The notes below the pieces were generated by a model. That model was not told the origin of the DNA and searched no databases. It saw only the letters and a program-made list of their open reading frames with translations. Of a stretch of DNA of 53,787 nt, positions 11,373 through 34,330 are shown piece by piece. The DNA comes from Methanomassiliicoccales archaeon (GTDB lineage Archaea; Thermoplasmatota; Thermoplasmata; SG8-5): contig JAUWNU010000002.1 of NCBI GenBank assembly GCA_030612505.1, forward strand, positions 1 through 53,787, written 5' to 3'. The position numbers and the translations under genes are program-made. The first letter of the stretch is position 1. Every line of letters starts with the position of its first letter.

Positions 11373-11530
11373 GCCGATGGCGACCACCTCCCCGCGCTCA
11401 CGCACGGGGCATCCAAAGTTTGAAAGAAAAAATAAATAACTTGTCACCTCATCCAATTCTAAACAAATTGGATGGTACAACCCCGCCCTTACAGACGGGG
11501 CATGATTGGCTAGGCCAGTGTTAGGGTTGA
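11373..11530 (-). repeat. Structured intergenic repeat, copy A (composite: two GC-clamped hairpins plus central hairpin; minimal loops)
   Basis: The reverse complement reads ccaatcatg-CCCCGTCTGTaagGGCGGGG-ttgtac-CATCCAATTtgtttagAATTGGATG-aggtgaca-T-rich-CCCCGTGCgtgaGCGCGGGG-aggtggtcgccatcggc. The architecture matches copies C, E and F. Confidence 0.8.
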
Positions 11531-11690
11531 TGGGTGGTGGGTGAAAGTGTAACTATTTCAGGCCACATTCAGTAATTGATAATGATTCCAGAAATGCCCT
11601 CTAACATTGATTTGAACATTGACGATAATAGGTTGGCTGGCATGGTTGAGTTGGTGGCTAATCAGAAGCAATTCGGCCAATCCTAGCGGA

Positions 11691-11810
11691 CTAACAACTT
11701 ACATCTGAACTGCCGCAACTTGCGCAATCTTGAACAGCTTGTCCATGATGTTTTGTACCTTTCCATCTATTCCCACATTTATTACATGTGTATGTAGTAC
11801 TTCTTGGAAT
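11691..11810 (-). CDS. Possible 39-aa zinc-ribbon protein (FmdB/CxxC_CxxC-like) with a non-canonical ATT start
   Basis: The minus strand reads GAGGTGAaaaaATT CCA AGA..., giving (M/I)PRSTTYTCNKCGNRWKGTKHHGQAVQDCASCGSSDVSC*. It has two CxxC pairs and an MP..Y.Y.C-type start, with a GGTGA RBS 4 nt upstream. No ATG/GTG/TTG is available in this frame. Confidence 0.3.
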   Translation of the reverse strand: MPRSTTYTCNKCGNRWKGTKHHGQAVQDCASCGSSDVSC

Positions 11811-11987
11811 TTTTTCACCTCAAAGAACAATACTAATTTTTAATTTAAACATTTCTAGTAATTTTTACCATGCTAATAAACAATACGCTTTATGTCAAAT
11901 AATATGTGTAGCACCCTCTTTGCAACACTCTGGATTCATGCAACACTTCCAAGTCAAACACCCGAATACGCAAAAGAACCGCCTATT

Positions 11988-14900
11988 CTAGGACACCTCA
12001 AACCACACCGTATTCCAATTTGTACCAACAATGCCCACTTCAACTCTGACATAATACCAGCCAGTGGTTGAAATATATGAATAAACACTTTCAGTAGCCC
12101 CAACACTTTCGGAAGAGTCTATCTCTGTTTGACTAGGATTATAGAGGTATAAATCAGGGTCTCCTGCAGCATTTCCTGTCATGTTCGCCCAGAAATATTC
12201 TCCTGCAAACAGAATTATTTGATAATAATCTCTTGAATCAAGGAACGCAGTAATATCCTCAGACCAAGCTTCACCCGGGTTCACTGTTCTTGCTGAAGCG
12301 AAGCCACCACCTGTGTCTGATGTGGCATATGTTCTACTATATACTTCATTTGAATTCGCATATTGACCTCCAGTCTCATTTACTCGAACGATAAAATGAT
12401 ATTGTGTTTGTGGAGTAAGACCACTAATTGTTACGGCTGTGCTTGTTAGAACTGTTAGTTTTCCAATATATGTCGCAGGGCCAGGAGTGAATCCAGAACT
12501 TGTGGACAGGTATATATCGTATGAAGCAAAATCACTGTTTCCATTGTCATATTGAGACCAAGAAATATCAATTTTATCTCCCGCAGAGGTTGGATTATAT
12601 GGTCGATTTAACACGACTGGTGTGGGGTCATTATTTACTAGGATCCATGTATCATTACTTCCAGGCGCTAGTTCATAATTTGAATATGAGTCTATAGCTC
12701 TTGAATAAAACTCATAATACCCCTCTCCACCTGTGGATGCAGAGTTAAAACTCCAAGCCCAAGGTGCTGATGTATCATCTCCATATTTCTGCCATGCCGC
12801 AGAATCCTTACTATACCACAATTCAACGGCATCAATTACAGAAGCGTCGCTGGCAGTGGCCGTTACTGTAAAGGTGATTAAACTCGTTGTGCTGGAAAGA
12901 GAATCAACCGAAGAAAGAGGGTCTGTAAAATCACCAGTCGTAAATTCTACATACCTATCTCCTGCAAGGCTGTTTCCTGCAAGATCCTCAAAGCCAGCAC
13001 CATCTAAATCCGCATAGTAGTTTGTTAATTCATTAAGTGCATTATATGTGCCCCTAAGTTCTTGATTACCGTTCCATGCCCAAATAACCCCAGGTAAATT
13101 TGAGACGGGTGTTCCTTGCTCTAGCATAGGCTCACTAAAATCTATTCTATAATAATCTGCAAACAGTGGAAATCCAGTTGTTTCATCAACTGGGCTAGTA
13201 ATTGGAATCCATGGCAATCCTATATCTGCTATATATGGGCCAGATTCTATGTCTGCAAGAGTGGATGGGATAGGTTCATTTGGTGTTCCCATAGCCCTAG
13301 CATTCCAATAATATGTTCCAGAAATAGGTAATGGACTATCTGGTGTCCAAGGTTCGTCCCATGGATTTGGAGGGAAAGATGAATAAGTCTCTTCTCCCCA
13401 TTTTGTCCAGGAAGTTCCACCATCATCAGACCAGTAAAACCACACCTCGTTCGTGTTAAAATGAGTATATTCTATCTCGGGCAAAGGATCATTGGTCAAT
13501 GTTGTATTTGGGCCAAGTACTTCTGCATATGGCGATACGCTCACTACGTATGGGCCAGCTTCAATGAAACTGGCATCAGTTGGTACTGGTTCATGATTGA
13601 CGTATCCCATTGCTCTTGCGTTCCAATAGTATGTTCCTGAAGATGGTAAATCAGACGAAGGAGTCCATGGATTATCCCAACCGTTCCAGCCCCAGTCATC
13701 TCCCCAATAAGTCCAAGTTGTCCCTCCATTATTCGAATAATAGAATTCAATACTAACTGGCCCCTTACTATATTCATAAGAAAGTTCTGGTCTTGCATCT
13801 AATGTACCATTTGAAACAGGTCCAGTAACATTAGCAATTGGTGCTACACTTATGCGTACTGATATGAAATGTTCTAAAGAATATCCTTTGAAGTCATGGA
13901 CTCTTATGGTTATATTGTAATCCCCATTTCCTTTTAAACTAATATAATCTTGAACAAGCCACCACCACCATGTGTTCTCAGAATCCCAAATACCATTCGA
14001 TAAGATTGGCGCAGGAATTGGGATATCCCAACCAAGACTTAGGATGTCAAATATATTCGTTCCATCTTTTTCAATAGTAATCTCTGCCCATAATGCCATA
14101 TCTGGATTATCTTGACAATCTATTCGAATATTAAAATCGTCAATGTTCACTGTGGCATTTGGCACTGGTTCAAGTACAGAAATTATTGTAGGCGTATTTT
14201 GAATATCGTTAATTTCAAAGGCTAAGATGAAGCCAGGCGGTATCAAACCAGAATCTAGCACACCATCAAGGAAATCTGTTAATGGGTCAGTTACATTAGA
14301 CATTCCTGAAATTTCGTCGGTTAGCCCATTCATTGTTTCAGCAGACGAGAAATCTGATTGATTTTTAAGAAATCCATTAACATTATCAATACTTACAGCA
14401 AAGTCTATGTACATGCCTCTAACTTGTGTTACATTAAAAGAGTAATATGTTGGCCCTTGGCCTGTAGCAAGATAGAATATTGGTATCTGGTAGATGTCAG
14501 TAATACTATTGAATTGAAGCCCATCATATACACAGAAGTCAAGAGGGAAGGCTTGAATTGCAGTAGTTATCACATTAGTTAATGGTTCTCCTGGCGGAAC
14601 ATTTTCCGCTATTGTTTTCAGAGTAGTACCAAAGGTTATAGCATCCAAATTAACATATGCCCAGCCTTGAGAATTCAAATCAACATTACCGTCCTTGAGG
14701 TCTTTGATTGTCACATTCTGGATATCACCAGTAACCTCGGAATATTCATCGACTACCATAATTGGAATATGGGCAAGATCCGCTGAACAAGAGAAGTAAG
14801 TCGCAGGATCATACAAAACGCCTTTAAGGTTCAAATATCTGAATCCAGAAGCCATTCTATCATAGTCTGGAATAATAGCTATTGTGGCATAGTTCCAGGC

Positions 14901-16319
14901 TGGGGTGCCATCATTGTTAAGAACTTCGGGCAAGGCTTCATCGAGTAATAATACAAATGCAGGGTTCTTAAATGTGGTAAGCGTCCTCAAGGCATCTACT
15001 GTGGTTTCGGGAATAGAGAATGCTTCCCCCAGGCTTTGTATCAATGTATCTAAGTCAATTACAATCCCATAACCCTCTACTTCGGTGCTTTCTACAAGAG
15101 TGTTTGTATGAACTGCCTCAACAGAATCCCAGACCTCAGTAACAGAACGAATATTGTAAGATGCAGGAGTAACATCCAGAATAATTCCTACATTAATTTC
15201 AAATGAGAAACTCAATCCTAAATCAAACGAATTTCCCAACAGTCCAGTAACCTTATTTGTCAAGTTGGATAAATCGGATTTGGAAACCTCGATATTACAG
15301 ATTCCAGGGAAGGAAGAAAACTCATCAACTGAATAGAGCAAGAACCATAGTTTGGTGTTATCAAGTGTATTATCTGCCTCTGCAACTATAGCAATGCCCT
15401 CTCCAATTTCACCAACAACATCCTTTACCCATTCTGCCCCGTCTGAGCAAAAAGCAGATGCTAAACAATCAATATCAGTAGGCGTGATGGTATCAATAAC
15501 ATCCCCGGAGATTGATTGTGGATTATTGTAGGATAAATTATTTACAATAATAAACTTAGAAGCCAATCCACTGAAAACAAAGCTAAAATTCTGAGCTAAA
15601 TCTGCAATCTTACCAAGGTCAATGTCACCAAACACGGATGAAGCATATGTTTCTGCCATGGCAATAAGCGCACTTTCATCAAACACTGTGCCTTCCACAC
15701 TTACACTGTTGAAAAATGTAGGATATGATTCATGTGGAGCCACCCAGATGTAATCATCTGTTCCAGTTGTCCCAATCCCAAAGGTATAGTTTCCATATAC
15801 CAAACTAAGTGAGGTAAATGACACCTCTATATTTGTAAATAATGAGTTGATAATCGAATCTAATTCATTGACATCAACATCATCAATATCTGCAGACACT
15901 ACTTCATCCAGAACAAAAGAACTTCCTGAGGATGAAATGTTGAATTTACCTCCTGTAATTTCTGAAAATGAAGCGGATGTTGAAATCTCAAAGGTTTGCA
16001 TCTGGTCAGCCGTTTGATTTTCCAAATACCCAACAAAATAATATGAATTACTTCTGGTGCCAGAATCAATATATTCAGATGGAACTATTGCACCAATATA
16101 GCTGGGATTGTTGTTAACATCGTCATTACCCCCCCAATCTGGTGAAGAGATTAACATAAGACTGCCCCCTAAAGCTGCAAGAAGAATGATGATGACAATA
16201 ATAGCTGCAATAAACTTCTTCTTTTTTTCAGAATCTTCCTTCTTGCTGGAATGTTTTAACTCAGATACTGGCTCTTCCTCAACCGCTTCCACAGGAGTTT
16301 CTACTAAATTTTCTTCCAC
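11988..16319 (-). CDS. Giant N-terminally anchored surface protein with Asp-box (BNR) repeats, FN3-like and PPC-like C-terminal domains
   Basis: N-terminal TM segment FIAAIIVIIILLAALGGSLMLI. Tandem ~100-aa repeats contain YSNNGGTTWTYW / WSDDGGTSWTKW (SxDxGxTW) and GTYYWNARAMG. FN3-like segment YDIYLSTSSGFTPG...LTPQTQYHFIVRV. PPC-like tail DSRDYYQI...DPDLYLYNP...GWYYVRVE. Confidence 0.85.
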   Translation of the reverse strand: MEENLVETPVEAVEEEPVSELKHSSKKEDSEKKKKFIAAIIVIIILLAALGGSLMLISSPDWGGNDDVNNNPSYIGAIVPSEYIDSGTRSNSYYFVGYLENQTADQMQTFEISTSASFSEITGGKFNISSSGSSFVLDEVVSADIDDVDVNELDSIINSLFTNIEVSFTSLSLVYGNYTFGIGTTGTDDYIWVAPHESYPTFFNSVSVEGTVFDESALIAMAETYASSVFGDIDLGKIADLAQNFSFVFSGLASKFIIVNNLSYNNPQSISGDVIDTITPTDIDCLASAFCSDGAEWVKDVVGEIGEGIAIVAEADNTLDNTKLWFLLYSVDEFSSFPGICNIEVSKSDLSNLTNKVTGLLGNSFDLGLSFSFEINVGIILDVTPASYNIRSVTEVWDSVEAVHTNTLVESTEVEGYGIVIDLDTLIQSLGEAFSIPETTVDALRTLTTFKNPAFVLLLDEALPEVLNNDGTPAWNYATIAIIPDYDRMASGFRYLNLKGVLYDPATYFSCSADLAHIPIMVVDEYSEVTGDIQNVTIKDLKDGNVDLNSQGWAYVNLDAITFGTTLKTIAENVPPGEPLTNVITTAIQAFPLDFCVYDGLQFNSITDIYQIPIFYLATGQGPTYYSFNVTQVRGMYIDFAVSIDNVNGFLKNQSDFSSAETMNGLTDEISGMSNVTDPLTDFLDGVLDSGLIPPGFILAFEINDIQNTPTIISVLEPVPNATVNIDDFNIRIDCQDNPDMALWAEITIEKDGTNIFDILSLGWDIPIPAPILSNGIWDSENTWWWWLVQDYISLKGNGDYNITIRVHDFKGYSLEHFISVRISVAPIANVTGPVSNGTLDARPELSYEYSKGPVSIEFYYSNNGGTTWTYWGDDWGWNGWDNPWTPSSDLPSSGTYYWNARAMGYVNHEPVPTDASFIEAGPYVVSVSPYAEVLGPNTTLTNDPLPEIEYTHFNTNEVWFYWSDDGGTSWTKWGEETYSSFPPNPWDEPWTPDSPLPISGTYYWNARAMGTPNEPIPSTLADIESGPYIADIGLPWIPITSPVDETTGFPLFADYYRIDFSEPMLEQGTPVSNLPGVIWAWNGNQELRGTYNALNELTNYYADLDGAGFEDLAGNSLAGDRYVEFTTGDFTDPLSSVDSLSSTTSLITFTVTATASDASVIDAVELWYSKDSAAWQKYGDDTSAPWAWSFNSASTGGEGYYEFYSRAIDSYSNYELAPGSNDTWILVNNDPTPVVLNRPYNPTSAGDKIDISWSQYDNGNSDFASYDIYLSTSSGFTPGPATYIGKLTVLTSTAVTISGLTPQTQYHFIVRVNETGGQYANSNEVYSRTYATSDTGGGFASARTVNPGEAWSEDITAFLDSRDYYQIILFAGEYFWANMTGNAAGDPDLYLYNPSQTEIDSSESVGATESVYSYISTTGWYYVRVEVGIVGTNWNTVWFEVS

Positions 16320-16404
16320 TCTTCCACCTAACTACCTATATGATTTGTTTCTCTTTTTAATCTATCTAATACTTTTTATCACCACCCCCCTGGCTGAACT
16401 CCTC

Positions 16405-16555
16405 CAGGGGCCTTCCCCCGCTCTACATGCCGGTTGCGACCACCTCCTCGCCCTCCACAGCTGAAATCCTTCGGCTTTCAGCCTACTTCACACGAAGCAT
16501 CGTGTTCACAGACGGGGCATGATTGGCTGGGCCGGTGTTGGTTGCGCCTATCGCC
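16405..16555 (-). repeat. Structured intergenic repeat, copy B (single unit with 72-nt three-way-junction insert at 16446-16517)
   Basis: The reverse complement reads ccaatcatg-CCCCGTCTGTGA-ACACGAtgctTCGTGT-gaagtagg-CTGAAAgCCgaaGGaTTTCAG-ctgtgga-GGGCGAGG-aggtggtcgcaaccggcatg. Confidence 0.8.
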
Positions 16556-16577
16556 TATACGCTATTTGAGATTCGAT

Positions 16578-16994
16578 TTATATCTTAATCATGCCTTTTT
16601 CTTTGAGATAATTCCCTGGGCCAGATACACTAAAGGCTATAGCTAGCATGTCTTCAAGAGGTTCCTGTATTGATTCCTCTGATTCTAATCTAGAAATAAG
16701 GAGTTTTAATGAATCACCTAGTTTATTGAATATGTTTTCATCAAAATCCATTGTTTGGTCACCCGCTTTTAACCTCTGAATTCTTTCATTTAGTGTTTGA
16801 TGACAGGCTTGTAATACAAAATCTGCCAACAAGACATCTTTTGAAAATGAATAACGATAAGTTCTGCTGGTTATTCCATATGCTGCGGTGAAGTAATACA
16901 ATTTCTTTTCAACATTGGGCTCTTTCCTCATCATTCTCTCCACTGTTTTAAGTTCATTGACAAGCTCTTTTCTAAAGAATTTAGTTTGCGACAT
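16578..16994 (-). CDS. Hypothetical helical protein, coupled to the upstream wHTH gene
   Basis: 138-aa ORF that overlaps the 3' end of 16981..17490 by 14 nt. No recognisable motifs. Confidence 0.55.
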   Translation of the reverse strand: MSQTKFFRKELVNELKTVERMMRKEPNVEKKLYYFTAAYGITSRTYRYSFSKDVLLADFVLQACHQTLNERIQRLKAGDQTMDFDENIFNKLGDSLKLLISRLESEESIQEPLEDMLAIAFSVSGPGNYLKEKGMIKI

Positions 16995-17490: not shown

Positions 17491-17557
17491 GTTATCACCA
17501 ACTTCTCATATAGTGTTGTGGTATATAAATATTTTTACCCTGTGTGTAAAATTGATT

Positions 17558-17842: not shown

Positions 17843-17857
17843 AACTATTCCTCATTC

Positions 17858-20800
17858 CTAAGTGGCTTCCCCCTCCACAATCCTAATCTCATCCTCAGTA
17901 AGATTGTACAACTCATAAACCAGCCCATCAATCTCCCTATCAGCCGCATCAATCTGCCTCTGCGCCCTGGTTTCAGCGTCCGGCGTGCTGGCCTCTTTAA
18001 TGTCCTTGTGTAGTTTCAGCATCCTCTCAACAAGCTTCACCATTTTGTCATGCCTGGCCACATCATTTTTGTCGTCAAAGTTGATGGTGCGGATTGGGAT
18101 ATTTTTGATGTATTGCTTATTGTATGCATAATACCCACCACTAAATTGACTACTTATAAGTTTAATATACCAATCAAATAAGTTTGAATTCAAAAGCCCT
18201 GTAAGATATAGATATTTTAATGATTTATATTTCTCATTAAGAGTAATTCCATATCCTCCACCGCCTCCACCACCACTTCCAACAAAATAGTAGAAATTTG
18301 TTTCATCAAAATAAAATGAGCCATGGCTGGCAATACTTGGTGTTAGAATTTTCATTTGTTCCATTTCGCTTAAATTTTGTGTTCTTCCAAAAGCATACCA
18401 TTTATCATGCTTCCATTTTCCTCTTTCTCTGGATTCTAGTTTTAAGCGATTTTCATTCAGATATTTCCAGATATTTGGAAATTCTTTTTCCATTTCCTTG
18501 ATAGGAATTAATTGCGCTTTATTTTCTACTAATTTATAAGGAAATAATATTGATTTAGTAATGTTTGAAACATGATATCGTTTAAGATTGACAGAACCTT
18601 TGCATAATGGATGAATTAGTTCTTTCTCTAATGTATAAGTGCTTCCTGTAGCTTCTGACCTATACTTGCCAGTGGACTCCTTTTTCATTATAAATACTGG
18701 GTCCGCTCCAGTAATCAATCCTTGGAAAATTTTACTTGTAACATCTTCTAATTTTATTGGTATGTCGTTTAAGCGTTCAAATAAATCACTTCCTGGACCA
18801 ACAATAAAATTCCATTCATCAGCCCCAGATGGATGATTAATTGAACCCTTTTTTGCATCCTTTTGTAATTTCCAGGAGAGTAAATCATTAACGTCAATAT
18901 AATTGAATTTGTTATTATCTTTTCCTGTAAGAAACAAAAGGCAAGTGTATGTTGTAGCCCCATCAAAAATTTGCAAATCATTGAAGTTGACAATTTCATC
19001 CAGATGCTTGCCCTCACTGATTAATTCTCGAATGGGCTGGCCATACTTTGCCTGGAAGAATTTATGGGGGCAAATGTATCCCATTTTTCCATTCTTGTTG
19101 ATTAGTTGAAGGGCCTTTTCTATGAAAACAACATAGATGTCATAATTTCCCTTGCTGGCGGATTTGTAAACTCTCTTATAATGCTCCACTTCGACAGGGG
19201 CCCACTCTTTCATTGTCTGGATGCGAATATAAGGCGGATTCCCAACCACCGCATCAAACCCTCCGGCCTTCATAATATCGGAAAACTCTTCCTGCCAGCT
19301 GAACGGATTAATCCTGTTAAGTTCATCATCTCGCTCATCATCATTCATGTCCTGAAGATGGTCGATTATGTCGAAATCGATTAGTGAGTTTCCGCACTTT
19401 ATGTTGCTGCCCAGGTCTGGTAATGCTGGCTCCTTGAACCAGGATTTCACATTGGCAATGGATTCTTTACTCTCTCCTTCAAGAGCTTTTAGAAGTAGGT
19501 TTAATTTGGTAACTTCAACTGCCTGGCCGTCAATGTCCACGCCGTGAATATTGTTCAGTAAAATTCGTTTCTTTTCCTGTAATGTTAATTGCCATTCGTC
19601 CTTTCGCTTTTCGAATACCTGGTCCTTGTGCTTTTTTGGGCTATTGGCCATATACCATTCAAGATGCTTGTTCAGCATTTTCTGGTAGGCTACTATCAGG
19701 AATGAGCCGGAACCGCAGGCAGGGTCCAGGATTTTGATTTTAGCCAGTTCGTCCAGATTCTTGCCTTCGCAGAGCTTTACCACTGTGTTTTCTACAATGT
19801 ATTCCACAATGTAGGTTGGCGTGTAATAAACTCCGCCAGCTTTCTTGACCTCTGGCTTTTCCTCGATCTTGGCAGTTTTTCCGCTGGCTGATAATTTGAT
19901 AACCTTGCCTAAGAATTGTTCATAGACCTGGCCTAAAATATCTGCCGGAATAACATCAAACTGATACGGTGAATTTGGATAATACAAGTCCCACAGAATG
20001 CTTGCTAGTACTTTGTCATCAACAATTAGCTTGCGCATTAATCGGTCCGGTTTTGTGCTTCTTGATTTGTCATGTGTGAAATGGAATAATCCAGAATTAT
20101 ATTTTGCATCTGCCAGTTGAAAGACATCTATCATATGTCTGTAAATATCTTTCTTGTTCATCATTATGTCATAAAGCTGATTCTCTGGCTCTGTTTTTCT
20201 GTCCTCACAAATACGCAAAAATAGAATTCTATCAATAAGCCTCTGAACTGCAAAATTCACTTCCTCGGTGGTGAATTCATTATTCTTGGCAATATTTTTA
20301 GCCAGTTCCTCACGCCAACCTTCTATTTCCTTGAGAATTTCTGCGTCAACCTCTGATGTTCCACGCTTCTTTGCCTGGGCATATTTGTCGAATGAACCCT
20401 TGAGAATTGCATCCTTTGTGAATATAGCAACAAGTTCATCCCAGCGTTCTTCCAGTTCATCGAAGGAGATGTAAAGAATTCTGCCCTTTGTCGGGTCATC
20501 AGTTCTAACTGGCCTGAACCTGCAATCATAAACTGAAATATCTTCAAAATTTGTGAGAATGGATAATGGTAATTTTGCGCTCCAGGCATATCTTTTCAAC
20601 TGGAATGCTGGCATCTTATCCGAGCATATGTCAACCGATGGCTTTTTTGCTTCAACGAAGAACTTGGTAGTGCCGCTTAACCTGAAAGAATAATCTGGGG
20701 TTTTTATGCTGCCTTCGACTTCCAATGATTCTTCGGTTACAACATCTCGATACTGGGGCGCATTTCCTTGGGTATTGTCAACGTCCCAATCCAGTGCCTT

Positions 20801-20975: not shown

Positions 20976-21268
20976 CAATCCAACCAACTCCCGAACACAC
21001 GAGAACAATCCAGCCAACACGACCATGCCCCGTGCGTGAACACGATAATTCGTGTGAAGTAGGCTGAAAGACCGAAGGATTTCAGCTGTGGAGCGCGGGG
21101 TTGTACCTCCTGATTGTCTGAATCAGGAGAGTTGACACGTCTCTTTTTTCTTTCTAAATTCAGAAACCCCGTCTGGATTGAAATGTATTCGTATTTGGAG
21201 GGCGGGGAGGTGCCGCCACAAACGGCCAACCACCGGGAACACCTAAATCAACGGCCAATCCCAAGAAT
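20976..21268 (+). repeat. Structured intergenic repeat, copy C (composite; unit 1 with 73-nt insert at 21028-21100)
   Basis: ...caacacgaccatg-CCCCGTGCGTGA-ACACGAtaatTCGTGT-gaagtagg-CTGAAAG..TTTCAG-ctgtgga-GCGCGGGG-ttgtac-CTCCTGATTgtctgAATCAGGAG-agttgaca-T-rich-CCCCGTCTGGA...GGAGGGCGGGG-aggtgccgcc. Confidence 0.8.
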
Positions 21269-21358
21269 CAGCCCAGCAGTTCTCAATTTGGTAATTCTCA
21301 ATCTTAATTCTTTCCTTCGGCTGAACCCCCCGCAGGCCTTCCCCCGCCCAACCTACAC

Positions 21359-21403
21359 CGCAAATTTGACAATTAAATTATAGTAATCTATGTCAAATCT
21401 GCG
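21359..21403. repeat. Palindrome cgcaaaTTTGACA-N19-TGTCAAAtctgcg (copy 1)
   Basis: 13-nt arms (12/13 complementary) with a 19-nt AT-rich spacer. The same arms recur at 26910-26954. Confidence 0.75.
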
Positions 21404-21450: not shown

Positions 21451-21534
21451 ATGCCGATGGCGACCACCTCCCCGCCCTCCGCTTCGCTTTAGACGGGGCA
21501 TGATTGGCCAGGCCGTCTGAGGGTTGCGCCTACC
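21451..21534 (-). repeat. Structured intergenic repeat, copy D (single unit, short loop)
   Basis: The reverse complement reads ggtaggcgcaaccctcagacggcctggccaatcatg-CCCCGTCT-aaagcgaagcgga-GGGCGGGG-aggtggtcgccatcggcat. Confidence 0.75.
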
Positions 21535-21680
21535 TTCTTCTTATCATAACCCACCGCCCAAATCCTAAACACTCGATTAATTGACCCCGGCTAATTAACT
21601 ATCCTCGGGGATAAAGTCGGTTTGAAAATAGTATATTAGGATCAATAATGGGACTTTGGGGTCAAGCTTGAATGCTTAGC

Positions 21681-23045: not shown

Positions 23046-23311
23046 CAACCAACCGAACACACAAGAACAATCCAGCCAACACGAACATGCCCCGTCTGTG
23101 TGAGCATTGCCTGCAATGCGAGCGAGACTGTTAACCGAAGGTTCAGTCGAAGAGGGCGGGGTATATGTGCCAGATTTGTGGAAGCTGGCAGTGACAAAAG
23201 GCCATTCGGATACCTCGTCCGTTAGGGCGGGGAGGTTCTAGCATATCATCGATACCGTCAACCCAGGGAACATCTCAACCAAGGGCCAGGCCGTCTTATG
23301 GTTACGCCTAC
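23046..23311 (+). repeat. Structured intergenic repeat, copy E (composite, sequence-divergent; unit 1 = 23090-23161, 72 nt)
   Basis: The architecture is the same but the stems differ: CCCCGTCTGTGTGA-GCATTGCctGCAATGC-...-CTGttAACCgaaGGTTCAG-...-GGGCGGGG-tatatgt-GCCAGaTTtgtggAAgCTGGC-agtgaca-...-GGGCGGGG-aggtt. Confidence 0.7.
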
Positions 23312-23511
23312 TTTTTATACTTTCACCAACCCCCAAAGTCTGTTTATATACATCGGTGGGAATAGCAGAAATATGAAGATTGAGAATGAGGAAAATATCG
23401 ATACGCCGCCCATAACGAAATTGCCTCCTGGCCGAGATACACTTTCGGGGGCAGCCGCAGTTGCCAGTTAGCCGAAAGCATTATATATTCTGTGTTACAA
23501 TAGTAATATAA

Positions 23512-24002: not shown

Positions 24003-24115
24003 TCAACAATAGCCAACCACCGGGAACACCTCAATCAACGGCCAATCCATGGAACACCTCAATCAACGGCCAGCCCTGAGAATTACGCCTCCCCAATTAT
24101 CACCCCCGATTCTCA

Positions 24116-24158
24116 TCGCCCCGCCCTTATATCCTCCAACGGAGTTTGTTGGGTTATG
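24116..24158 (+). promoter_or_regulatory. Shared promoter module (TATA-like ttatat ~25 nt upstream of ATG), copy 1
   Basis: tcgccccgcccTTATATcctccaacggagtttgttgggttATG is nearly the same as 25838-25879 (ccgccccaaccTTATACccccagacaaagattgttgggttATG). Here it precedes only a 19-codon ORF. Confidence 0.4.
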
Positions 24159-24303
24159 AATGATATAACAAGAATTGTTAATTTTGTACAAGATAATGGA
24201 ACATACAAATATTGAAAGGTAATAATTGATTGAAAATTATTTGTATATCTTATGCGTATATATTTTAACATTAAATAACGAGGAGTTAACGGGAAGTGAA
24301 ATT

Positions 24304-25662: not shown

Positions 25663-25837
25663 TAAATTCGTTTTCACTAATTATTAGTTGCGAGCGAAGC
25701 GGAGGGGGCAGGGCTAGGAAACTTTATGAAAACAGATAATAATTGTGTTTGCGAGGCCGCCTAATGAATGAAATGAATTAGGTTGGGTCTTTCACCACCA
25801 ACGGCCTACCAGGTCTATTATCGCCAATGATACCCAC

Positions 25838-25879
25838 CGCCCCAACCTTATACCCCCAGACAAAGATTGTTGGGTTATG
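25838..25879 (+). promoter_or_regulatory. Shared promoter module, copy 2 (drives 25877..26248)
   Basis: See 24116..24158. The TATA-like ttatac lies ~25 nt upstream of the ATG, consistent with a leaderless archaeal mRNA. Confidence 0.4.
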
Positions 25880-26248
25880 AAAGAGCCAAAGTTCGACTTC
25901 TCCAGGCCAACCGGCGATATAGGTCTGCTCCTGCTTGTGATGAGCCTTATTGCCTATGCTGTCTGGCTCGTTATTTCTATTCAGAATATCTGGTCTTCCA
26001 ATGCTGCTGAAAAGAATTATTTTATTGTGGTCAGTATTGTGCTGATCATTGCTCTGGTCCTTCTCTCCATCAATTATCGCCATGTCAAAAAATTAAATAA
26101 AAAGATACCTGAGTGGATTGTGTTCAAAGGGGATTCAAAGCAGGTACTTCCTCCGCTGTGCCAGAAATGCCGGTATCCTGCAAGATGGGCAGTCGAGTTT
26201 GATTCCTGGTATTGCGATAAATGCAATTATTTGGCTGGCCCATTTTGA
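25877..26248 (+). CDS. Small membrane protein (2 TM) with C-terminal zinc ribbon
   Basis: Hydrophobic segments IGLLLLVMSLIAYAVWLVI and YFIVVSIVLIIALVLLSI. C-terminal CQKCRY...YCDKCNY. Confidence 0.6.
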   Translation: MKEPKFDFSRPTGDIGLLLLVMSLIAYAVWLVISIQNIWSSNAAEKNYFIVVSIVLIIALVLLSINYRHVKKLNKKIPEWIVFKGDSKQVLPPLCQKCRYPARWAVEFDSWYCDKCNYLAGPF

Positions 26249-26864: not shown

Positions 26865-26954
26865 AACTTTGACAATTGATGAATAAATATTCGTCAAAGT
26901 TAAGTTAAACGCAAATTTGACAAACATGATGATGACTTAAATGTCAAATTTGCG
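26865..26954. repeat. Two adjacent TTTGAC-N19-GTCAAA palindromes (26865-26901 and 26910-26954)
   Basis: aacTTTGAC-N19-GTCAAAgtt has perfect 9-nt arms. cgcaaaTTTGACA-N19-TGTCAAAtttgcg has perfect 13-nt arms, the same arms as at 21359-21403. Confidence 0.75.
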
Positions 26955-27122
26955 ACATAAAGGAACTGGCATCTATATCATCAACCAGAAACGCCAGCTC
27001 CTTTAGGGGCTGGTAGTTTACGAAATGACAACTCATTAAACATGCACAACTCTTTTTTCTTTTTTTGTTATCCAAAAAATAAAATATGTGTAGAATATTG
27101 TTTAGCATTAGTGGTGAAGACT

Positions 27123-27833: not shown

Positions 27834-27920
27834 ATTCAAGATTAATCGAAGCAAGCTTGATTGTTGAATTAGGAGGCATATTCATAAATACAAGTAAACC
27901 AATATTTACAGAGGTTGGCC

Positions 27921-28832: not shown

Positions 28833-28852
28833 ATTTACAGGAGGTATATAAT

Positions 28853-30382
28853 ATGAAATATAAAATTAAAGAAATAAATGTGGATGCAGGCGAATTTACT
28901 ATAATACTGAATAGTGCAGACGCGAAAGAATTAGGAGTTCGTTCGCTGGACCGGGTTAAGGTGATCGCTGGTGAGCATACAATAACCTGTATTGTGGAAA
29001 CTTCTGATTCAGTGGTTTCCCAGGGTGAGATAGGCATTCTCTGCAAGGCCTTCGAAAAGCTAAAGGCTTGTGACGGCGGAGATGTTGATGTCATACCCAC
29101 TAGCAGGCCCCATTCTGTTGAATTGATTAAGAAAAAGATCGAAGGCCATGTATTAACTTCTGATGAAATTCGGGAGATAATTACTGACATTACCAAACAC
29201 AATCTCACAGATATCGAATTAACAGCATATGTTGTGGCATGCCAGCTTAATGGCATGAACCTGGATGAAACAACCGCCCTAACAAGGTCCATGGTTGAGA
29301 CCGGCGATACAATTGAGTTAGATAAATCGCCAGTGTTCGACTTTCACAGCATCGGCGGCGCACCCGGGAATAAAATAACACTGCTGGTTGTGCCAATAGT
29401 TGCCGCTGCCGGATTATACATTCCAAAAACATCTTCCAGGGCAATATCCAGTGCCTGCGGAACTGCTGATATTTTTGAGACCATTGCCCGGGTAAGTCTA
29501 GAAATCGACGAGATAAAGCACATAACCGAGGAGATTGGTGGGGTAATTGCCTGGGGCGGGCATGTGAACTTTGCTCCTGCTGATGATTTGATTATTCGCG
29601 TGGAATATCCGCTGAGCATTGACCCCTACAGCCAGTTAATTGCCTCGGTCATGGCTAAAAAGAAAGCAGTAGGCGCAGATTATTTCCTGCTGGATATCCC
29701 AACTGGCCCTGGAACAAAAGTCGAGGACTATGAGCTTGCCCACAAGTATGCCAATGATTTTATTGAAATTGGAAGAAGACTGGACATGAAGGTTGAATGC
29801 GCAATTACCTACGGCGGCCAGCCACTTGGACGGCATATTGGACCCAAACTGGAGGCACAGGAGGCCATGCAGATTCTTGAGGGAAAAATTACCCGGAGCA
29901 GCGTTATTGAGAAGGCTGTTTCCATGGCAGGCATACTCTTCGAAATGTCTGGCATGATTAATGGCAAGCAGAAAGCCCGTGAGATTCTGGAAAATGGTCA
30001 GGCACTTGCCAAGATGCGGCAAATTCTCAAGGCCCAGGATGGCGATCCTAATTTGAAATCTGAAGATATCAAGCCAGGTGAGTTCAAGGCAGTAATAACA
30101 GCTAACCAGGATGGCTATGTCACGTTTCTTGATAATAAGAAACTTGTGCGACTGGCTAGAACCGCAGGTTCCCCCAGGGACCACGGCGCTGGACTTGTGT
30201 TCCTGAAAAAGCGTGGCGACCACATAGAAAAGGACCAGCCAATGTTCGAGATCCACGGCGACAATGAAAGAAAAGTTCTCGAGGCAGCAGCCCTGTCAAA
30301 TCGCCTGAAACCCTATACTGTTGAGGGAATGATAATCGAGCATATTCCCAGCACCACCAGGCCAGTAGAATACGAGGATTAA
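28853..30382 (+). CDS. deoA: AMP phosphorylase (archaeal thymidine-phosphorylase family with N-terminal extension)
   Basis: 509 aa. HSIGGAPGNK, SSRAISSACGTADIFE, VMAKKKA and a PYNP_C-like C-terminus. GGAGG lies 8 nt upstream. It is paired with the R15P isomerase, as in the archaeal AMP (pentose bisphosphate) pathway. Confidence 0.9.
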   Translation: MKYKIKEINVDAGEFTIILNSADAKELGVRSLDRVKVIAGEHTITCIVETSDSVVSQGEIGILCKAFEKLKACDGGDVDVIPTSRPHSVELIKKKIEGHVLTSDEIREIITDITKHNLTDIELTAYVVACQLNGMNLDETTALTRSMVETGDTIELDKSPVFDFHSIGGAPGNKITLLVVPIVAAAGLYIPKTSSRAISSACGTADIFETIARVSLEIDEIKHITEEIGGVIAWGGHVNFAPADDLIIRVEYPLSIDPYSQLIASVMAKKKAVGADYFLLDIPTGPGTKVEDYELAHKYANDFIEIGRRLDMKVECAITYGGQPLGRHIGPKLEAQEAMQILEGKITRSSVIEKAVSMAGILFEMSGMINGKQKAREILENGQALAKMRQILKAQDGDPNLKSEDIKPGEFKAVITANQDGYVTFLDNKKLVRLARTAGSPRDHGAGLVFLKKRGDHIEKDQPMFEIHGDNERKVLEAAALSNRLKPYTVEGMIIEHIPSTTRPVEYED

Positions 30383-30419
30383 TCAAAAAAACTATTTACT
30401 TCGGCGTGATACTCCTATC

Positions 30420-30779
30420 ATGGAAGAATCACCAATAGGCTTCATGATACATGGCTTTAGCAAGGATGAGACCCAGCTAGTTCATGAATTCCTTCAGACC
30501 CTTGCAGGCTGCGAGATTATTCCAATCTCTGCCACTGGCATGGAAACTCTTCGTGTTGCGGAAATTTTGAACTCTGCGCCCTATGATAATTTTGCCAGTT
30601 CTGAACCGAAGATACTAATGTTCCTTGGGTTCGGGGATGATAAGATAGGCGCTGCAATGAAGCATTTTCCTGGAGAAAAGCCAATATTCTGTTCGCCCAC
30701 AGAGCAGAACCTGCAGTGGACCCTGGAATATCTTATCGAGCATCTGCTTGAGGAACGGGCATCGTTCAGCAAGAAATAA
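30420..30779 (+). CDS. Hypothetical small protein
   Basis: 119-aa ORF on the same strand just after deoA. No confident motif. Confidence 0.55.
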   Translation: MEESPIGFMIHGFSKDETQLVHEFLQTLAGCEIIPISATGMETLRVAEILNSAPYDNFASSEPKILMFLGFGDDKIGAAMKHFPGEKPIFCSPTEQNLQWTLEYLIEHLLEERASFSKK

Positions 30780-30809
30780 AAATATAAGCTTCCAGTACAT
30801 TCCCTATAC

Positions 30810-31550
30810 ATGAGAGAGGACTATCCATTGCCCGAGCAGGCAATGGACGATTATCCACTGCCCAAGCAGGCCACGGATGAACATCCATCACCCCAGCAGG
30901 CAATGGATGAACAGCTATTGCGCGGCAGGGATTGGAAGCTGATTCCTAATCTTTTGACATTATTCAGACTAATTATTGTAATTCCATTTATCTGTGCTCT
31001 CTGGGTTCATGAATATTACTTGGCGATTTTTCTTCTCTGGATTGCGGCGCCTACTGATATGTTGGACGGCATAATTGCCAGACGTCTTAACCAATGTTCA
31101 AGCCTGGGGCAGGTTCTGGACCTTTTTGTCGACCGAATACTTACCCTGCCAGCAGTGTTTATTATCTGGTATCAGGGCTATTTCACCGGTCAACCTCTTT
31201 ACCCCTGGCTGGCAATATTCTGGGCTGTGGTATTGATTGCAACCGATGCCACAATCATGGTTGGCGTATTGCGGTTCATTCCTCGGAAACTGGCCGATCA
31301 GAAACTAGAATTTCCTGAGCCCTCGACATTTGTCAAGCTCACCTATCCAGTGCAAATAATCGCACTCAGTTTCGTCATCGGTGTGCCGACCTGGGAGTTC
31401 AAGATTTTTTCTACCGTGGTATTCTCCGGCTATCTGATTCTGGCAAGCATCATGACCATAATGGCTGGAATCCTGTACATGAGGGTGGCTGGCTGGTTGT
31501 TTAAATCCGGAGGCACGCCCCTCAAGCCTGAGGAAAAGCCCCCTGAGTGA
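30810..31550 (+). CDS. CDP-alcohol phosphatidyltransferase with an N-terminal decapeptide-repeat tail
   Basis: Signature D-x2-DG-x2-AR-x8-G-x3-D-x3-D appears as PTDMLDGIIARRLNQCSSLGQVLDLFVDR. Multiple TM segments. Confidence 0.85.
   Translation: MREDYPLPEQAMDDYPLPKQATDEHPSPQQAMDEQLLRGRDWKLIPNLLTLFRLIIVIPFICALWVHEYYLAIFLLWIAAPTDMLDGIIARRLNQCSSLGQVLDLFVDRILTLPAVFIIWYQGYFTGQPLYPWLAIFWAVVLIATDATIMVGVLRFIPRKLADQKLEFPEPSTFVKLTYPVQIIALSFVIGVPTWEFKIFSTVVFSGYLILASIMTIMAGILYMRVAGWLFKSGGTPLKPEEKPPE
30819..30908 (+). repeat. 3 x 30-bp in-frame tandem repeat
   Basis: gactatccattgcccgagcaggcaatggac / gattatccactgcccaagcaggccacggat / gaacatccatcaccccagcaggcaatggat, encoding DYPLPEQAMD DYPLPKQATD EHPSPQQAMD. 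Confidence 0.9.
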
Positions 31551-31651
31551 TCCTTTCTTCTCGGGGATATGACAAGGAGGTTCAAAAATAAGAAAAAAAG
31601 GGCAGCCAAGCTGCCCATTGGGGGCGGGAACTGAGAAGTTCCCAAAGGAAT

Positions 31652-33115
31652 TCACCATTTCTTTGGAGAAGTTTTCCTGATTGTTATCACCGAGATTGCA
31701 ATGACTCCCACAACTATGCCCACCATGACATAAAGGCCAATGAGACCGCCAATAACTTCCAGTGGTCCAAGATTAACACCGATGTCCAGGAAAAGTGCAT
31801 TGGAAATATAGCTGGGGTCATGGAATATGTCGTGGCCCATTGGGTAAATGTAGCCGCCCAGGAATAGAATTCCATGTACGTATCCATCATGATTTTCTCC
31901 TTCCCAGTCTATATTTTGACCGGCGTGAATTTGGAAGTACATTTCCTTCTCTTCGCCATCAACTGTCACATTGCTTACCCAGTTCATTTCGCCGACCTTC
32001 TGCCAGTTGTCCCTGAAGATGATAACATCCTTTGAAAGGCGGGTTGATTCCTCTGGTATTGTGTCGGTTGCTGTGACGTCTCCTTCTGAGCCAGTGAATG
32101 TCTCAAGCTCTGCTATTCCGATTGCATCCTCGGCTGTGGCATTGAGGAACTGAACATCCATCCAGTCCTGCACAAATGTAGGGATAAATGTTCCGAATGC
32201 TGTGGCTGTTTCCAACATGAGCAAGTTATCCTGGGATTCATAGTCCCAGTCCTTTATCCAGTGGTCGAACTTGAACTCGGTTGTAAGGCTTGTTCCGGTG
32301 TATGTTCTTGATTCCATCTCTGTTGAAGCAATTGGTGCTCCGTCTGCATATGTGACCCTGTACCATGGAACACTTACATTGAACTCGTCCAGTACTGTGC
32401 CAAGATGGAACTGGAAGGCAATATCGTGAACCTTTCCGTCTGCCTCGGTTCCTGCTCTTGAACCATCTTCATTCTCTGCTGGCTCATTGTCCCATATCTT
32501 ATCGTATAGAACATTCTTGGCACTGAGTGTGAAGGTCCATTCCTTCTCTGTTGTTCCAAGGGTCCTTGTTTCCTCTATCTCCGAGCGCTCCCATGACCTG
32601 TTTAAATCTACTATCTTATACACTGGCTCCAATGAACCAAGTGCGAAATCGTCAATTGTTCCGCCTGCTCCCTGGAAATCGAAGAGGCCGTTTCCAGCGC
32701 CGTATCTCTCGCCGCTGAATGGCTCCAGATATCCGTCATCACTGAACTCGATTAACATGGCCAGCTTCTGAATGTAAATTGTCAGCACTGGTATCCCGGT
32801 TGCAGGAACCATCATTGCTCCATCTTCATTCCGAATCTCTGCGCCGCCAAGGAATCTGAGATGGGCTGATACGATTGTTACGGAATTTGAATGCGTCTCA
32901 TTGCCGTAAACAACTCCGAACCAGGCTGTAGAATCGCCCTTGGTCATGTTCAATGCCACATAGTCGCCTCCCTCCCACTCGGTGGTGGAGCCAACTTCTA
33001 TGGCCAGATGATCTTCAATACTCAATACTTCGGCCCTGACAGTGGTTGCAGGTCCAAAGGCGCACAGTCCCAGCATGAGAGCGGCGAACACCGCCCCAAA
33101 CATTATTATTTTCAT
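31652..33115 (-). CDS. Secreted protein with signal peptide and C-terminal TM anchor
   Basis: N-terminal MKIIMFGAVFAALMLGLCAFGPATTVRAE. C-terminal VIGGLIGLYVMVGIVVGVIAISVITIRK. Confidence 0.75.
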   Translation of the reverse strand: MKIIMFGAVFAALMLGLCAFGPATTVRAEVLSIEDHLAIEVGSTTEWEGGDYVALNMTKGDSTAWFGVVYGNETHSNSVTIVSAHLRFLGGAEIRNEDGAMMVPATGIPVLTIYIQKLAMLIEFSDDGYLEPFSGERYGAGNGLFDFQGAGGTIDDFALGSLEPVYKIVDLNRSWERSEIEETRTLGTTEKEWTFTLSAKNVLYDKIWDNEPAENEDGSRAGTEADGKVHDIAFQFHLGTVLDEFNVSVPWYRVTYADGAPIASTEMESRTYTGTSLTTEFKFDHWIKDWDYESQDNLLMLETATAFGTFIPTFVQDWMDVQFLNATAEDAIGIAELETFTGSEGDVTATDTIPEESTRLSKDVIIFRDNWQKVGEMNWVSNVTVDGEEKEMYFQIHAGQNIDWEGENHDGYVHGILFLGGYIYPMGHDIFHDPSYISNALFLDIGVNLGPLEVIGGLIGLYVMVGIVVGVIAISVITIRKTSPKKW

Positions 33116-33255
33116 TTTTTATTCCTCCATTTTATTTTTCCATTTTTTACTTGTTGAGAGAAATATGCCGGATTAGGGGTATATAAACCCCCGAATCTCT
33201 TTTCCTGCACAATGTTTCTGAGGGTTTTTTATACCAAAAACTCGGATTTAGTACT

Positions 33256-34062
33256 ATGAAAAAGGATGTTAGAGCTGTTGAGAATCCCATATCTGCAATG
33301 TTCGACCTTTCGGAAGATGTGGCGCAGCAGGCCCCTAATATCAAGAGCCTGGTGCATTATGCATCTGCTTTTATTATTGTCTGGCTGATTATTAATGTTT
33401 TTCTTGGATTAGCATTATTAGTAACCGGGCAATTATTTCTCATGCTCATAATGCTGGTGCTGTTCATCATGGGCGTTACATCGCTGATCTTACTTAGACG
33501 GATCAATCACTTTTTCAAATATTTTGTGGCCAGGCAGCGGGCAATTACCGCAGTTCGGCAGATGGACCCAATGGTCTATGCCCCTAAGGGAAATAACGTG
33601 ACAGAAAGACTGGTGACATATTTCAGGGCCAGCCTTCCAGCCTTCCAGCGAAAAGAGGTTGAAGTTGCTATGCCAGGTATTGTTCAGGGAGTGCACGGCA
33701 CAGAATACCGTTTTGACGCGTACATCAAGGAGCCAGCAAGTGGGGCATGGAAGTCCATGGGCCTTGGGGCACATGGGTTCAGTGTTTTTATCAAGGCCTT
33801 CAAAGAACCACCAACTGTGAAAGATCTTCAAGCTCTGAAAAAGGCAGTGGAGGACGTCAGCCAGCGCACCGGTATCCCACCAGTGCGGGTAATAGCACTC
33901 TGGGAGCGGGACGAGGACCAGATTATCTCCGATGCAGCATACAACTTTGTAATGAACAATCAGGTGGAAATAAAGTTCAAGTCCAGGAAGCTAAAATGTG
34001 CAATGGAGATTGTTTCCGAGACCGAAGGTTCATATGATTTTATCCCGTATATTGTTCAATGA
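33256..34062 (+). CDS. Membrane protein (2 TM) with a cytoplasmic C-terminal domain of unknown function
   Basis: TM segments FIIVWLIINVFLGLALLV and LFLMLIMLVLFIMGVTSLILL. The C-terminal YRFDAYIKE...FSVFIKAFKE is weakly reminiscent of a D...(E/x)K nuclease-fold pattern (speculative). Confidence 0.6.
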   Translation: MKKDVRAVENPISAMFDLSEDVAQQAPNIKSLVHYASAFIIVWLIINVFLGLALLVTGQLFLMLIMLVLFIMGVTSLILLRRINHFFKYFVARQRAITAVRQMDPMVYAPKGNNVTERLVTYFRASLPAFQRKEVEVAMPGIVQGVHGTEYRFDAYIKEPASGAWKSMGLGAHGFSVFIKAFKEPPTVKDLQALKKAVEDVSQRTGIPPVRVIALWERDEDQIISDAAYNFVMNNQVEIKFKSRKLKCAMEIVSETEGSYDFIPYIVQ

Positions 34063-34089
34063 ATTAGGCCGCTAGAATCGAAGGCTGAA

Positions 34090-34330
34090 CCAATCATGCC
34101 CCGTCTGTGAGCACGATACTTCGTGCGAAGTAGGCTGAAAACCGAAGGGTTTCAGCTGTGGAGGGCGGGGTTGTACCATCCAATTTCTCTGAATTGGATG
34201 AGTTGACACCGATTCTTTTTCTTTCAAACTTTGGATGCCCCGTCCGTGAACACGATTTTTCGTGTGAAGTAGGCTGAAAGCCAAAGGGTTTCAGCTGTGG
34301 AGGGCGGGGAGGTGGTCGCCACCGGCATGC
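34090..34330 (+). repeat. Structured intergenic repeat, copy F (composite; both units carry the 72-nt insert: 34099-34170 and 34238-34309)
   Basis: ccaatcatg-CCCCGTCTGTGA-GCACGAtactTCGTGC-gaagtagg-CTGAAAaCCgaaGGgTTTCAG-ctgtgga-GGGCGGGG-ttgtac-CATCCAATTtctctgAATTGGATG-agttgaca-T-rich-CCCCGTCCGTGA-ACACGAttttTCGTGT-...-GGGCGGGG-aggtggtcgccaccggcatg. Confidence 0.85.

Follow-up and report, generated by a model that had tools for sequence, protein, structure and literature searches.

The sequence analysed here is a whole 53.8-kb contig (JAUWNU010000002.1; hereafter the window, meaning the full stretch) from an uncultured, Thermoplasmatota-like archaeon, and it carries six copies (A–F) of a repeat family built on GC-clamped hairpins. 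The window genes include an AMP phosphorylase gene beside one for ribose-1,5-bisphosphate isomerase, genes for an XPD helicase, a TFIIB-type zinc ribbon and an FtsZ/tubulin-family GTPase, and a gene for a 268-aa protein whose named homologues come from metagenome-assembled genomes (MAGs) of Thermoplasmatota/Thermoplasmata. The region from 1 to 23 kb is a defence island with a type IIG restriction-modification enzyme (954 bits), a C5 methyltransferase, CARF_STK_AAA (E 1.6e-238), an EVE protein and small regulators. Most island cassettes are separated by copies A, B, C/D and E, and copy F lies between two convergent genes in an ordinary chromosomal context. A first-pass annotation had placed the repeats at nearly every cassette boundary between 10.7 and 23.5 kb and at one convergent gene pair; the latter statement stands, and the former holds for most boundaries of the island.

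Direct reading and a repeat search of the window recovered all six previously reported copies at their places and in both orientations, the minus strand carrying A, B and D and the plus strand C, E and F. Three diagnostic patterns match the window 4, 3 and 4 times against 0.00 expected (100 dinucleotide-preserving shuffles each), which excludes chance, and the 10 occurrences of the clamp motif all fall within the six copies. A blastn-short comparison of all copies with the window found no further copy, the sole extra match being 61 nt of flank-related units at 24012–24072. Four additional copies were found in other genomes (loci L136, L138, L144 and L152). The elements are 84–290 nt long and contain stop codons in every sense frame; together with the gain and loss of 53-nt modules, this led us to reject a protein-coding origin.

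All copies are assembled from a small set of modules. A left flank of ∼33 nt (...GGCCnrGCCAATCATG) precedes an 8-bp GC clamp (CCCCGTCT/GGGCGGGG), and a 19-nt right flank (AGGTGGTCGCCAYCGGCAT) terminates all copies. The clamp apex is either short (6–27 nt), being YGTDAG or, in copy D, a 15-nt loop that holds a GCGAAGC mini-hairpin, or a 53-nt module, M. The latter consists of TGTGA, hairpin a, GAAGTAG, hairpin b with a CC-GNA-GG tip and TGTGGAG, in that order, and folds as a three-way junction. In dimeric copies clamp 1 is followed by TTGTAC, a variable hairpin (H2), AGKTGACA, a T-tract and a second, direct clamp, whereas the monomers B and D consist of left flank, single clamp and right flank. 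Seven copies (A, C, E, F, L136, L138 and L144) have both clamps (CCCCGYS...SRCGGGG) on one strand, and T5–T6 tracts are present on the sense strand of A, C, F and L136. The architecture first described (a flank with ccaatcatg or caacacgaNcatg, CCCCGYC...GRCGGGG, ttgtac, H2, agttgaca, T-tract, second clamp and aggtggtcgcca) is largely confirmed, with three corrections: (i) B and D are single-clamp monomers that lack H2 and the T-tract; (ii) E lacks the T-tract; and (iii) the two outer helices, formerly H1 and H3, are one GC-clamp module that occurs twice in direct orientation.

The element ends are asymmetric. Where the left end is definable (B, D, F, L136 and the inverted fragment in E), similarity among copies begins at (T)AGGCSGC, 33–34 nt 5′ of clamp 1; in D and L136 it can be seen to end at CGGCAT, 19 nt 3′ of the last clamp. 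We found no terminal inverted repeats: the best match between the 90-nt left side and the reverse complement of the right side is 5–10 nt in nine copies, i.e. chance level. With no clear target-site duplication either, the elements are not classical MITEs (miniature transposable elements with inverted repeats). The right flank also contains GGAGGTGGTC, a near-perfect Shine–Dalgarno sequence complementing the canonical 16S 3′ end. A role for this flank as Shine–Dalgarno sequence plus start codon of a small open reading frame (ORF) was considered and rejected: the ORF exists only in F (24 codons), B has an immediate stop, and A, D and L136 have no ATG.

Copy F (34066–34332, plus strand) is the full dimer and was delimited by sequence reading, patterns, folding and a covariance model. 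It starts 3 nt past the stop codon of the 268-aa gene and comprises the left flank (34066–34098, ...GGCTGAACCAATCATG), clamp 1 with M (34099–34170), TTGTAC, H2 and AGTTGACA (34171–34208), the T-tract TTCTTTTTCTTTCAAACTTTGGATG (34209–34237), clamp 2 with M (34238–34309) and the right flank AGGTGGTCGCCACCGGCAT (34310–34332). Repeat-related sequence extends past this flank as far as ∼34372, where the convergent gene has its stop codon. Copy A (11371–11531, minus strand; sequence reading and pattern searches) is a dimer with two short clamps. Its parts are the right flank (11371–11389), clamp 2 (CCCCGTGCGTGAGCGCGGGG, 11390–11409), T-tract and linker (11410–11449), H2 (CATCCAATT/AATTGGATG, 11450–11474), clamp 1 (11481–11500) and left flank (11501–11531).

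Copy C (20976–21268, plus strand; sequence reading, repeat search and covariance model) is a dimer with a U-type left flank (20976–21027), clamp 1 with M (21028–21100), TTGTAC, H2 (CTCCTGATT/AATCAGGAG) and AGTTGACA (21101–21137), a T-tract (21138–21166), clamp 2 (21167–21207) and a variant right flank with one 28-nt U unit (21208–21268). Copy E (23046–23314, plus strand; same three methods) is a diverged dimer: a U-type left flank (23046–23089) leads into clamp 1 with a diverged M (23090–23161; hairpins GCATTG/CAATGC and GACTG/CAGTC), H2 (GCCAG/CTGGC, 23169–23189), clamp 2 (CCTCGTC...GGCGGGG, 23213–23232) and a U-like unit (23256–23283). It is adjoined by a left-flank fragment inverted relative to E (23284–23314).

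Two copies are monomers, both on the minus strand. Copy B (16390–16558; sequence reading, patterns and covariance model) has a right-flank extension with the hairpin CCCCTGG/CCAGGGG (16390–16425), a right flank (16426–16445), a clamp with the M three-way junction (16446–16517) and a left flank (TAGGCGCAACC...GCCAATCATG, 16518–16558). Copy D (21452–21535; sequence reading and patterns) has a right flank (21452–21469), a clamp whose 15-nt apex includes GCGAAGC (21470–21498) and a left flank (GTAGGCGCAACC...GGCCAATCATG, 21499–21535). A lone fragment akin to the right-flank extension of B was read directly at 21318–21375 (GTAGGTTGGGCGGGGGAAGGCCTGCGGGGGGTTCAGCC, minus strand).

The 28-nt U unit (GGAACACCTCAATCAACGGCCAATCCAT) also occurs on its own. 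A clamp-free tandem pair lies 3′ of a ribbon–helix–helix (RHH) operon (24012–24076, plus strand; repeat search and blastn-short), and single units lie to the right of C (21225–21261) and of E (region 23256–23292). Its 3′ half is similar to the element left flank (GGCCnnGCCAATCATG), and within this repeat system the unit may serve as a module that binds protein.

Pairing is conserved where sequence is not. For the variable hairpin H2, A and F share CATCCAATT/AATTGGATG (L138 has one pair less), C has CTCCTGATT/AATCAGGAG, E has GCCAG/CTGGC and L136 has GGCCAGAA/TTCTGGCC; the variants quoted in the first-pass annotation were exact. Across these four variants 48 of 48 H2 pairs are Watson–Crick, whereas arms taken from different variants pair at only 3–5 of 5–9 positions. 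Between C and F each arm differs at four positions, and all four differences are compensated (4/4). H2 pairs were tallied by hand; the MAFFT alignment of the H2 region is inconsistent with the structure for L136 and E, and the covariance-model alignment included antisense matches.

The clamp/M module, in an alignment fitted to the covariance model, behaves in the same way. Paired cells amount to 98.4% against 92.0 ± 1.0 in shuffles, and 7 of 23 pairs have changed on both sides against 2.1 ± 1.1, a count that none of 500 shuffles reaches. When the partners are slid by 1–3 columns, only 40–50% remain paired and the compensatory pairs fall to zero. RNAalifold applied to an independent MAFFT alignment gives the identical three-way junction and again seven compensated pairs. 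The sample is small (seven M modules, five of them closely related), such that the signal is clear yet below an R-scape-grade statistic. Clamp position 7 is swapped from C-G to G-C in A2, C1, L136-2 and L138-2, and a covariance model built from five near-identical copies retrieved the diverged E1 (E 6e-9) and L138 (E 1e-8). The earlier claim of selection on a folded single strand, rather than on primary sequence, is supported by the H2 pairs, the doubly changed M pairs and the concordant RNAalifold fold; the covariation holds beyond shuffles. Readings of the M junction as a K-turn, C/D-box or hammerhead were tried by eye against consensus motifs, and none fits.

The fold also discriminates between the two strands. 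Sense-strand clamps contain 17 G-T/U pairs against one A-C pair, and these wobbles would be 17 mismatches on the opposite strand. Thirteen of the 17 represent one inherited position, which leaves four independent cases (E2, two in L138-2 and L144-2) against one A-C (B). We compared sense and antisense folding of the copies with 40 mononucleotide shuffles. With RNA parameters the sense minimum free energy is 8–24 kcal/mol lower than the antisense one in all nine copies tested (copy F, z = −4.4 sense versus −3.1 antisense), but with DNA parameters the sense advantage is only 1–5 kcal/mol. The fold is strand-specific, and RNA energetics describe it better than DNA energetics do. Two of its tips, CC-GNA-GG and GCGAAGC, also belong to the classic stable DNA mini-hairpins, and the folding molecule may be either RNA or DNA. 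In most cases the strand that folds is sense for the gene immediately preceding it: six of the 10 copies (A, B, D, F, L136 and L138) lie directly 3′ of a co-oriented gene.

We then compared the loci of relatives. L136, a dimer in another metagenome located 3′ of a winged helix–turn–helix gene, came to light through a spurious antisense ORF of copy F in a protein-database search; a 1087-aa query joining the translations of all frames retrieved no copy. L144, from a relative with 67% identity to the window in the 268-aa protein, holds a degenerate dimer (13135–13260) with D-like clamp loops, and L152 holds a remnant (8068–8100) in a distant relative. Loci L132–L135 are the same population assembled twice more (99.7–100% identity), and two of these contigs terminate inside copies A and F, as expected of a multi-copy repeat. 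Copy density is 6 per 54 kb in the window and 0 to 1 per 6.5–21 kb in the relatives' loci. Upstream of the degenerate element, L144 contains more strong GC-rich hairpins (12920–13100; e.g. GGCCTTTCGC-TCGTACGG-GCGAAAGGCC) with no Rfam match, and the same locus has a tRNA gene at 14087–14159.

Orthologues of the 268-aa gene allow the copy F site to be compared between filled and empty states (identities are those of this protein to its window counterpart). In L138 (81%) the site is filled by a diverged dimer, with ∼290 nt between the stop codon and the old spacer. Its hairpin a is GCTACGA/TCGTAGC, its hairpin b is CTGAGAACC-GTA-GGTTTTCAG with one sense-strand G-U, and its clamp 2 is CCTTGTG...CGCGGGG with three wobbles. 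The site is empty in L137 (82%), where the 110-nt spacer stands alone, and in L144–L151 (67%), where there is zero spacer. In L142 (81%) and L143 (90%) another gene lies downstream and the element is absent. At the L138 versus L137 junctions, the one filled/empty pair, only 'TAG' is repeated, and it overlaps the stop codon; in the window, copy F stands in place of the hairpin-bearing spacer seen in L137. From these alignments, the element at the copy F site appears to be a derived insertion and the site a point of rearrangement.

Taken together, the copies form a modular repeat family with insertion or loss at an orthologous site and with selection on pairing on one strand. It is a known kind of element in a new lineage-specific family, not a new class of RNA gene. 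We consider it probable, though well short of certain, that the family consists of dispersed, non-autonomous, modular hairpin repeats resembling palindrome-associated transposable elements (PATEs) or repetitive extragenic palindromes (REPs), specific to a lineage of uncultured Thermoplasmatota-like archaea. Of the two options in the first-pass annotation, the one of MITE/REP-like elements mobilised as hairpins is the better supported, by (i) the filled/empty site, (ii) the assembly breaks, (iii) the dimer and monomer forms and (iv) the absent terminal inverted repeats. Further copies exist in other genomes, the pairs covary and the flanks of the copies differ, counter to the outcomes that the annotation had listed as refuting it.

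A plausible mechanism can be outlined. The basic unit is a GC-clamped hairpin, with an apex free in sequence but always structured, set between asymmetric left (∼33 nt) and right (∼19 nt) ends; the full element comprises two direct hairpins around the core TTGTAC-H2-AGKTGACA-T-tract. Dispersal would depend on a trans-supplied enzyme able to recognise the hairpin when the DNA is single-stranded (ssDNA), such as an HUH/Y1 transposase of the IS200/IS605 or RAYT (REP-associated tyrosine transposase) type. Within the PATE/REP-like reading, IS200/IS605-type mobilisation specifically has about an even chance of being correct. Monomers may arise by clamp-to-clamp deletion, B and D being the leftover that we infer from recombination between two direct clamp repeats. 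Most copies would be transcribed as 3′ untranslated regions (UTRs), and pairing would thereby also be kept at the RNA level, where hairpins and U-tract could act as 3′-end stabilisers or terminators. Clustering at the cassette boundaries of the defence island may reflect repeats that accumulate in accessory DNA and recombination that takes place at them. Mobility and maintenance at the RNA level are not mutually exclusive.

PATEs are transposase-free elements of the IS200/IS605 type in Haloquadratum walsbyi and other haloarchaea (PMC3119063). Like the present family, they lack terminal inverted repeats and have two similar subterminal palindromes in direct orientation (PMC3119063). Further shared traits are a left end longer than the right, a length too short for a protein, 'terminal-only' versions produced by deletion between the palindromes (compare monomers B and D), small extra modules within the palindromes (M, for the present family, in the clamp apex) and clustering in accessory DNA. 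In contrast to PATEs, no IS605-type transposon with matching ends is known for the present family, no conserved 4–5-nt target is shown, the host is Thermoplasmatota-like rather than a member of the Halobacteria, the insert carried by the apex forms a 53-nt three-way junction, and the covarying internal H2 and wobble-rich clamps fit RNA better than ssDNA.

REPs and their composites, the bacterial interspersed mosaic elements (BIMEs), have their own RAYTs (PMC3733652, PMC2817692) and resemble the present copies in being short GC-rich extragenic palindromes, mostly 3′ of genes, that form mosaic composites with defined linkers; they are transcribed as RNA hairpins, as the present copies probably are. 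REPs are tagged by GTAG or CGTC at one end. Here GTAG stands immediately 5′ of hairpin b in five of the seven M modules, E1 and L138 being the exceptions, and at the left terminus of D and of the inverted fragment of E (G-TAGGCG); CGTC lies within the clamp 5′ arm (CCC-CGTC), not at the arm end. They differ in that the REPs of BIMEs alternate in orientation, whereas every dimer here is a direct clamp repeat; our flanks are much longer and conserved, and no RAYT was seen in the window or the fetched loci. REP families are listed in bacterial phyla only (survey PMC3733652).

The BOX elements of pneumococci (boxA-boxB(n)-boxC) are built from exchangeable modules in variable number, fold strongly, are intergenic and have no known transposase. 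The present family shares the modularity, strong folding, intergenic location and lack of a known transposase, but BOX is unrelated in sequence and host and is not known to have paired direct GC clamps.

Several points weigh against the PATE/REP-like reading. The mobilising enzyme is purely inferred: no transposase, RAYT, TnpB or integrase gene was found at any fetched locus or among 57 scanned ORFs, a set that covers the long non-overlapping ones in the 54-kb window. The element ends rest on few copies, and the left boundary has no conserved 4–5-nt target motif, only a T before (T)AGGCSGC at four of five definable ends. The lone filled/empty pair could also be a deletion in L137, although the 0-nt spacer of the outgroup L144 favours insertion. 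The DNA-parameter fold is weak (z from +0.5 to −3.4, with the copy D clamp failing to form), such that RNA fits better than ssDNA. Four copies (C, E, L144 and L152) do not follow a co-oriented gene. Finally, DNA-pattern scans of public genome and metagenome collections returned chance matches only: (i) a right-flank scan of the genome collection gave 11 matches taken as chance, both archaeal ones being UvrA coding DNA (GGEVVATG) and nine, unread, lying in GC-rich bacteria; (ii) two pattern scans of the metagenome collection gave 0 matches and 2 chance matches in GC-rich bacterial genes; (iii) in the viral collection three patterns gave no match, and a fourth was too unspecific; and (iv) blastn against plasmid and phage collections gave no match.

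The right flank GGCGGGGAGGTGGTCGCCACCGGCA (34306–34330) is identical to DNA encoding the UvrA peptide GGEVVATG in two GC-rich Methanomicrobiales MAGs (L129 and L130). This looks like a coincidence, and it gave rise to the false positives in the genome scan.

The strongest rival, possible but clearly less likely than PATE/REP-like mobility, holds that the copies are cis-acting RNA elements whose function, not mobility, explains their conservation: the clamps and H2 would block 3′-to-5′ decay, the U-tract would terminate archaeal RNA polymerase, and spread would be passive, by recombination. The far stronger pairing under RNA than under DNA parameters, the sense-strand bias of the G-U wobbles (17 versus 1), the position of 6 of 10 copies immediately 3′ of co-oriented genes, the sense-strand T5–T6 tracts of A, C, F and L136, and the start of F 3 nt past a stop codon, where it replaces an L137-type hairpin spacer, all fit this explanation. 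It is weakened by the missing T-tract in monomers B and D and dimer E and by the location of C, E, L144 and L152 outside 3′ UTR positions, and it leaves unexplained the conserved asymmetric flanks, the dimer/monomer series and the near-identical copies at unrelated loci and genomes.

A more speculative proposal, which we regard as rather improbable, is that the copies are functional RNA or ssDNA devices and not junk repeats. They would be either stand-alone omega-RNA-like guide modules for an RNA-guided nuclease acting in trans, or sites of hairpin-based cassette exchange that builds archaeal defence islands through a recombinase unrelated to IntI. If the guide-module form were true, a specificity or scaffold function would fall to the always-paired variable H2 and to the three-way-junction apex.

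It is less probable still that the dimers are PATE-type IS200/IS605 derivatives encoding a TnpB omega-RNA scaffold, which would run from H2 through clamp 2 and a GGTGG-TCG-CCAYC hairpin to the right end and take its guide from flanking DNA. The stretch from H2 to the right end is indeed a structured, covarying, strand-specific, RNA-like fold of ∼110–165 nt that ends at the right boundary, and PATEs that carry omega-RNAs are documented (PMC10055086). However, neither a tnpB nor a tnpA gene was seen in the window or the fetched loci, Rfam gave no IS605-related or HEARO match even at E < 5, the T5–T6 tract in mid-scaffold would tend to terminate archaeal transcription, and monomers lack most of the scaffold.

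Integron-like sites analogous to attC have very little probability in our assessment: cassette-3′ ssDNA hairpins would be recombined by a recombinase encoded elsewhere, and the island would be assembled cassette by cassette. Integrons are known in Archaea (PMC9668308), and their attC sites share with the present copies a conservation of structure over sequence, strand-specific folding, a position at cassette 3′ ends and a variable central length. In the window, most cassettes between 10.7 and 23.5 kb are bounded by copies, which have conserved ends, a variable but always paired centre and a strand-specific fold, and synteny breaks exactly at the copy F site in L142 and L143. By contrast, no integrase (IntI) or other recombinase is present in the 54 kb, orientation is mixed (C and E oppose A, B and D), and the R/L core sites GTTRRRY/RYYYAAC were not seen, on reading the sequence, at the ends GCCAATCATG and AGGTGGTCGCCAYCGGCAT; GTTGTAC and GTTGACA, the sole GTT motifs present, do not fit GTTRRRY. 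F, L136, L144 and L152 are solitary copies in ordinary chromosomal contexts outside arrays, and two direct hairpins per site are unlike attC.

Independent small-RNA genes with their own promoter and an end at the oligo-T tract, the reading preferred in the first-pass annotation, are equally improbable: the strong, covarying, strand-specific structure and the oligo-T after H2 in four copies would suit them, but no TATA- or BRE-like promoter lies in or beside the left flank (the promoter-like repeats of this organism carry TTTATATA), the T-tract is internal with conserved structure beyond it, B and D lack both H2 and T-tract and E the T-tract, copies are present or absent at orthologous sites, modules are freely gained and lost, and no Rfam family matches. 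The Rfam search that the annotation had proposed was run with Rfam 15 on the window and four loci. Nothing passed the gathering score, and the two matches that appeared at E < 5 were irrelevant, due to chance and outside the elements. Ribozymes, HEARO, IS605 motifs and known archaeal small RNAs were ruled out by these searches.

Bacterial repeats of this structured, transposase-free hairpin kind (REP/BIME and BOX) have been studied extensively, whereas the archaeal literature consulted describes such repeats for haloarchaea only (PATEs). A full-text literature search found no paper that joins Thermoplasmatota with MITE-type intergenic repeats. The modular anatomy, covariation, strand-specific wobbles and filled/empty site make this family a workable test case for selection on RNA versus selection on ssDNA; the RNA option would concern 3′-end formation or mRNA stability in archaea, and the ssDNA option transposase recognition. 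The repeats fragment metagenome assemblies of this lineage. They also mark cassette boundaries of the defence island, which makes them useful in binning and in reconstructions of how the island evolved.

Several further features of the window were recorded. The CARF_STK_AAA gene (6923–10579) encodes a 1218-aa kinase plus ORC/Cdc6-like NTPase that matches the PADLOC CARF_STK_AAA model end to end, in a window without a CRISPR-Cas locus; a 425-aa gene (5653–6930) overlaps it from upstream and received no family assignment. A palindromic, operator-like sequence, CGCAAATTTGACA-N19-TGTCAAATYTGCG, occurs twice, at 21359–21403 (between C and D) and at 26909–26955 (5′ of a metallo-beta-lactamase-fold gene at 27042), and is probably a shared transcription-factor site. 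Promoter-like repeats with a TTTATATA box lie at 37123–37212, 38276–38365, 23313–23354, 24096–24163 and 25817–25884, upstream of Fic, radical SAM and RHH operon genes and others; the 37123/38276 pair is 89% identical over 90 nt. The 5′ end of a CDP-alcohol phosphatidyltransferase gene contains an in-frame 30-nt tandem repeat (30823–30921, 3.3 copies), which has one more unit in L132. Window and L135 differ at nine single-nucleotide polymorphisms within 70 nt of the type IIG gene (20192–20261) and are otherwise identical over 13.6 kb save for a 30-nt repeat-unit indel; the cluster may represent strain variation in a specificity region.

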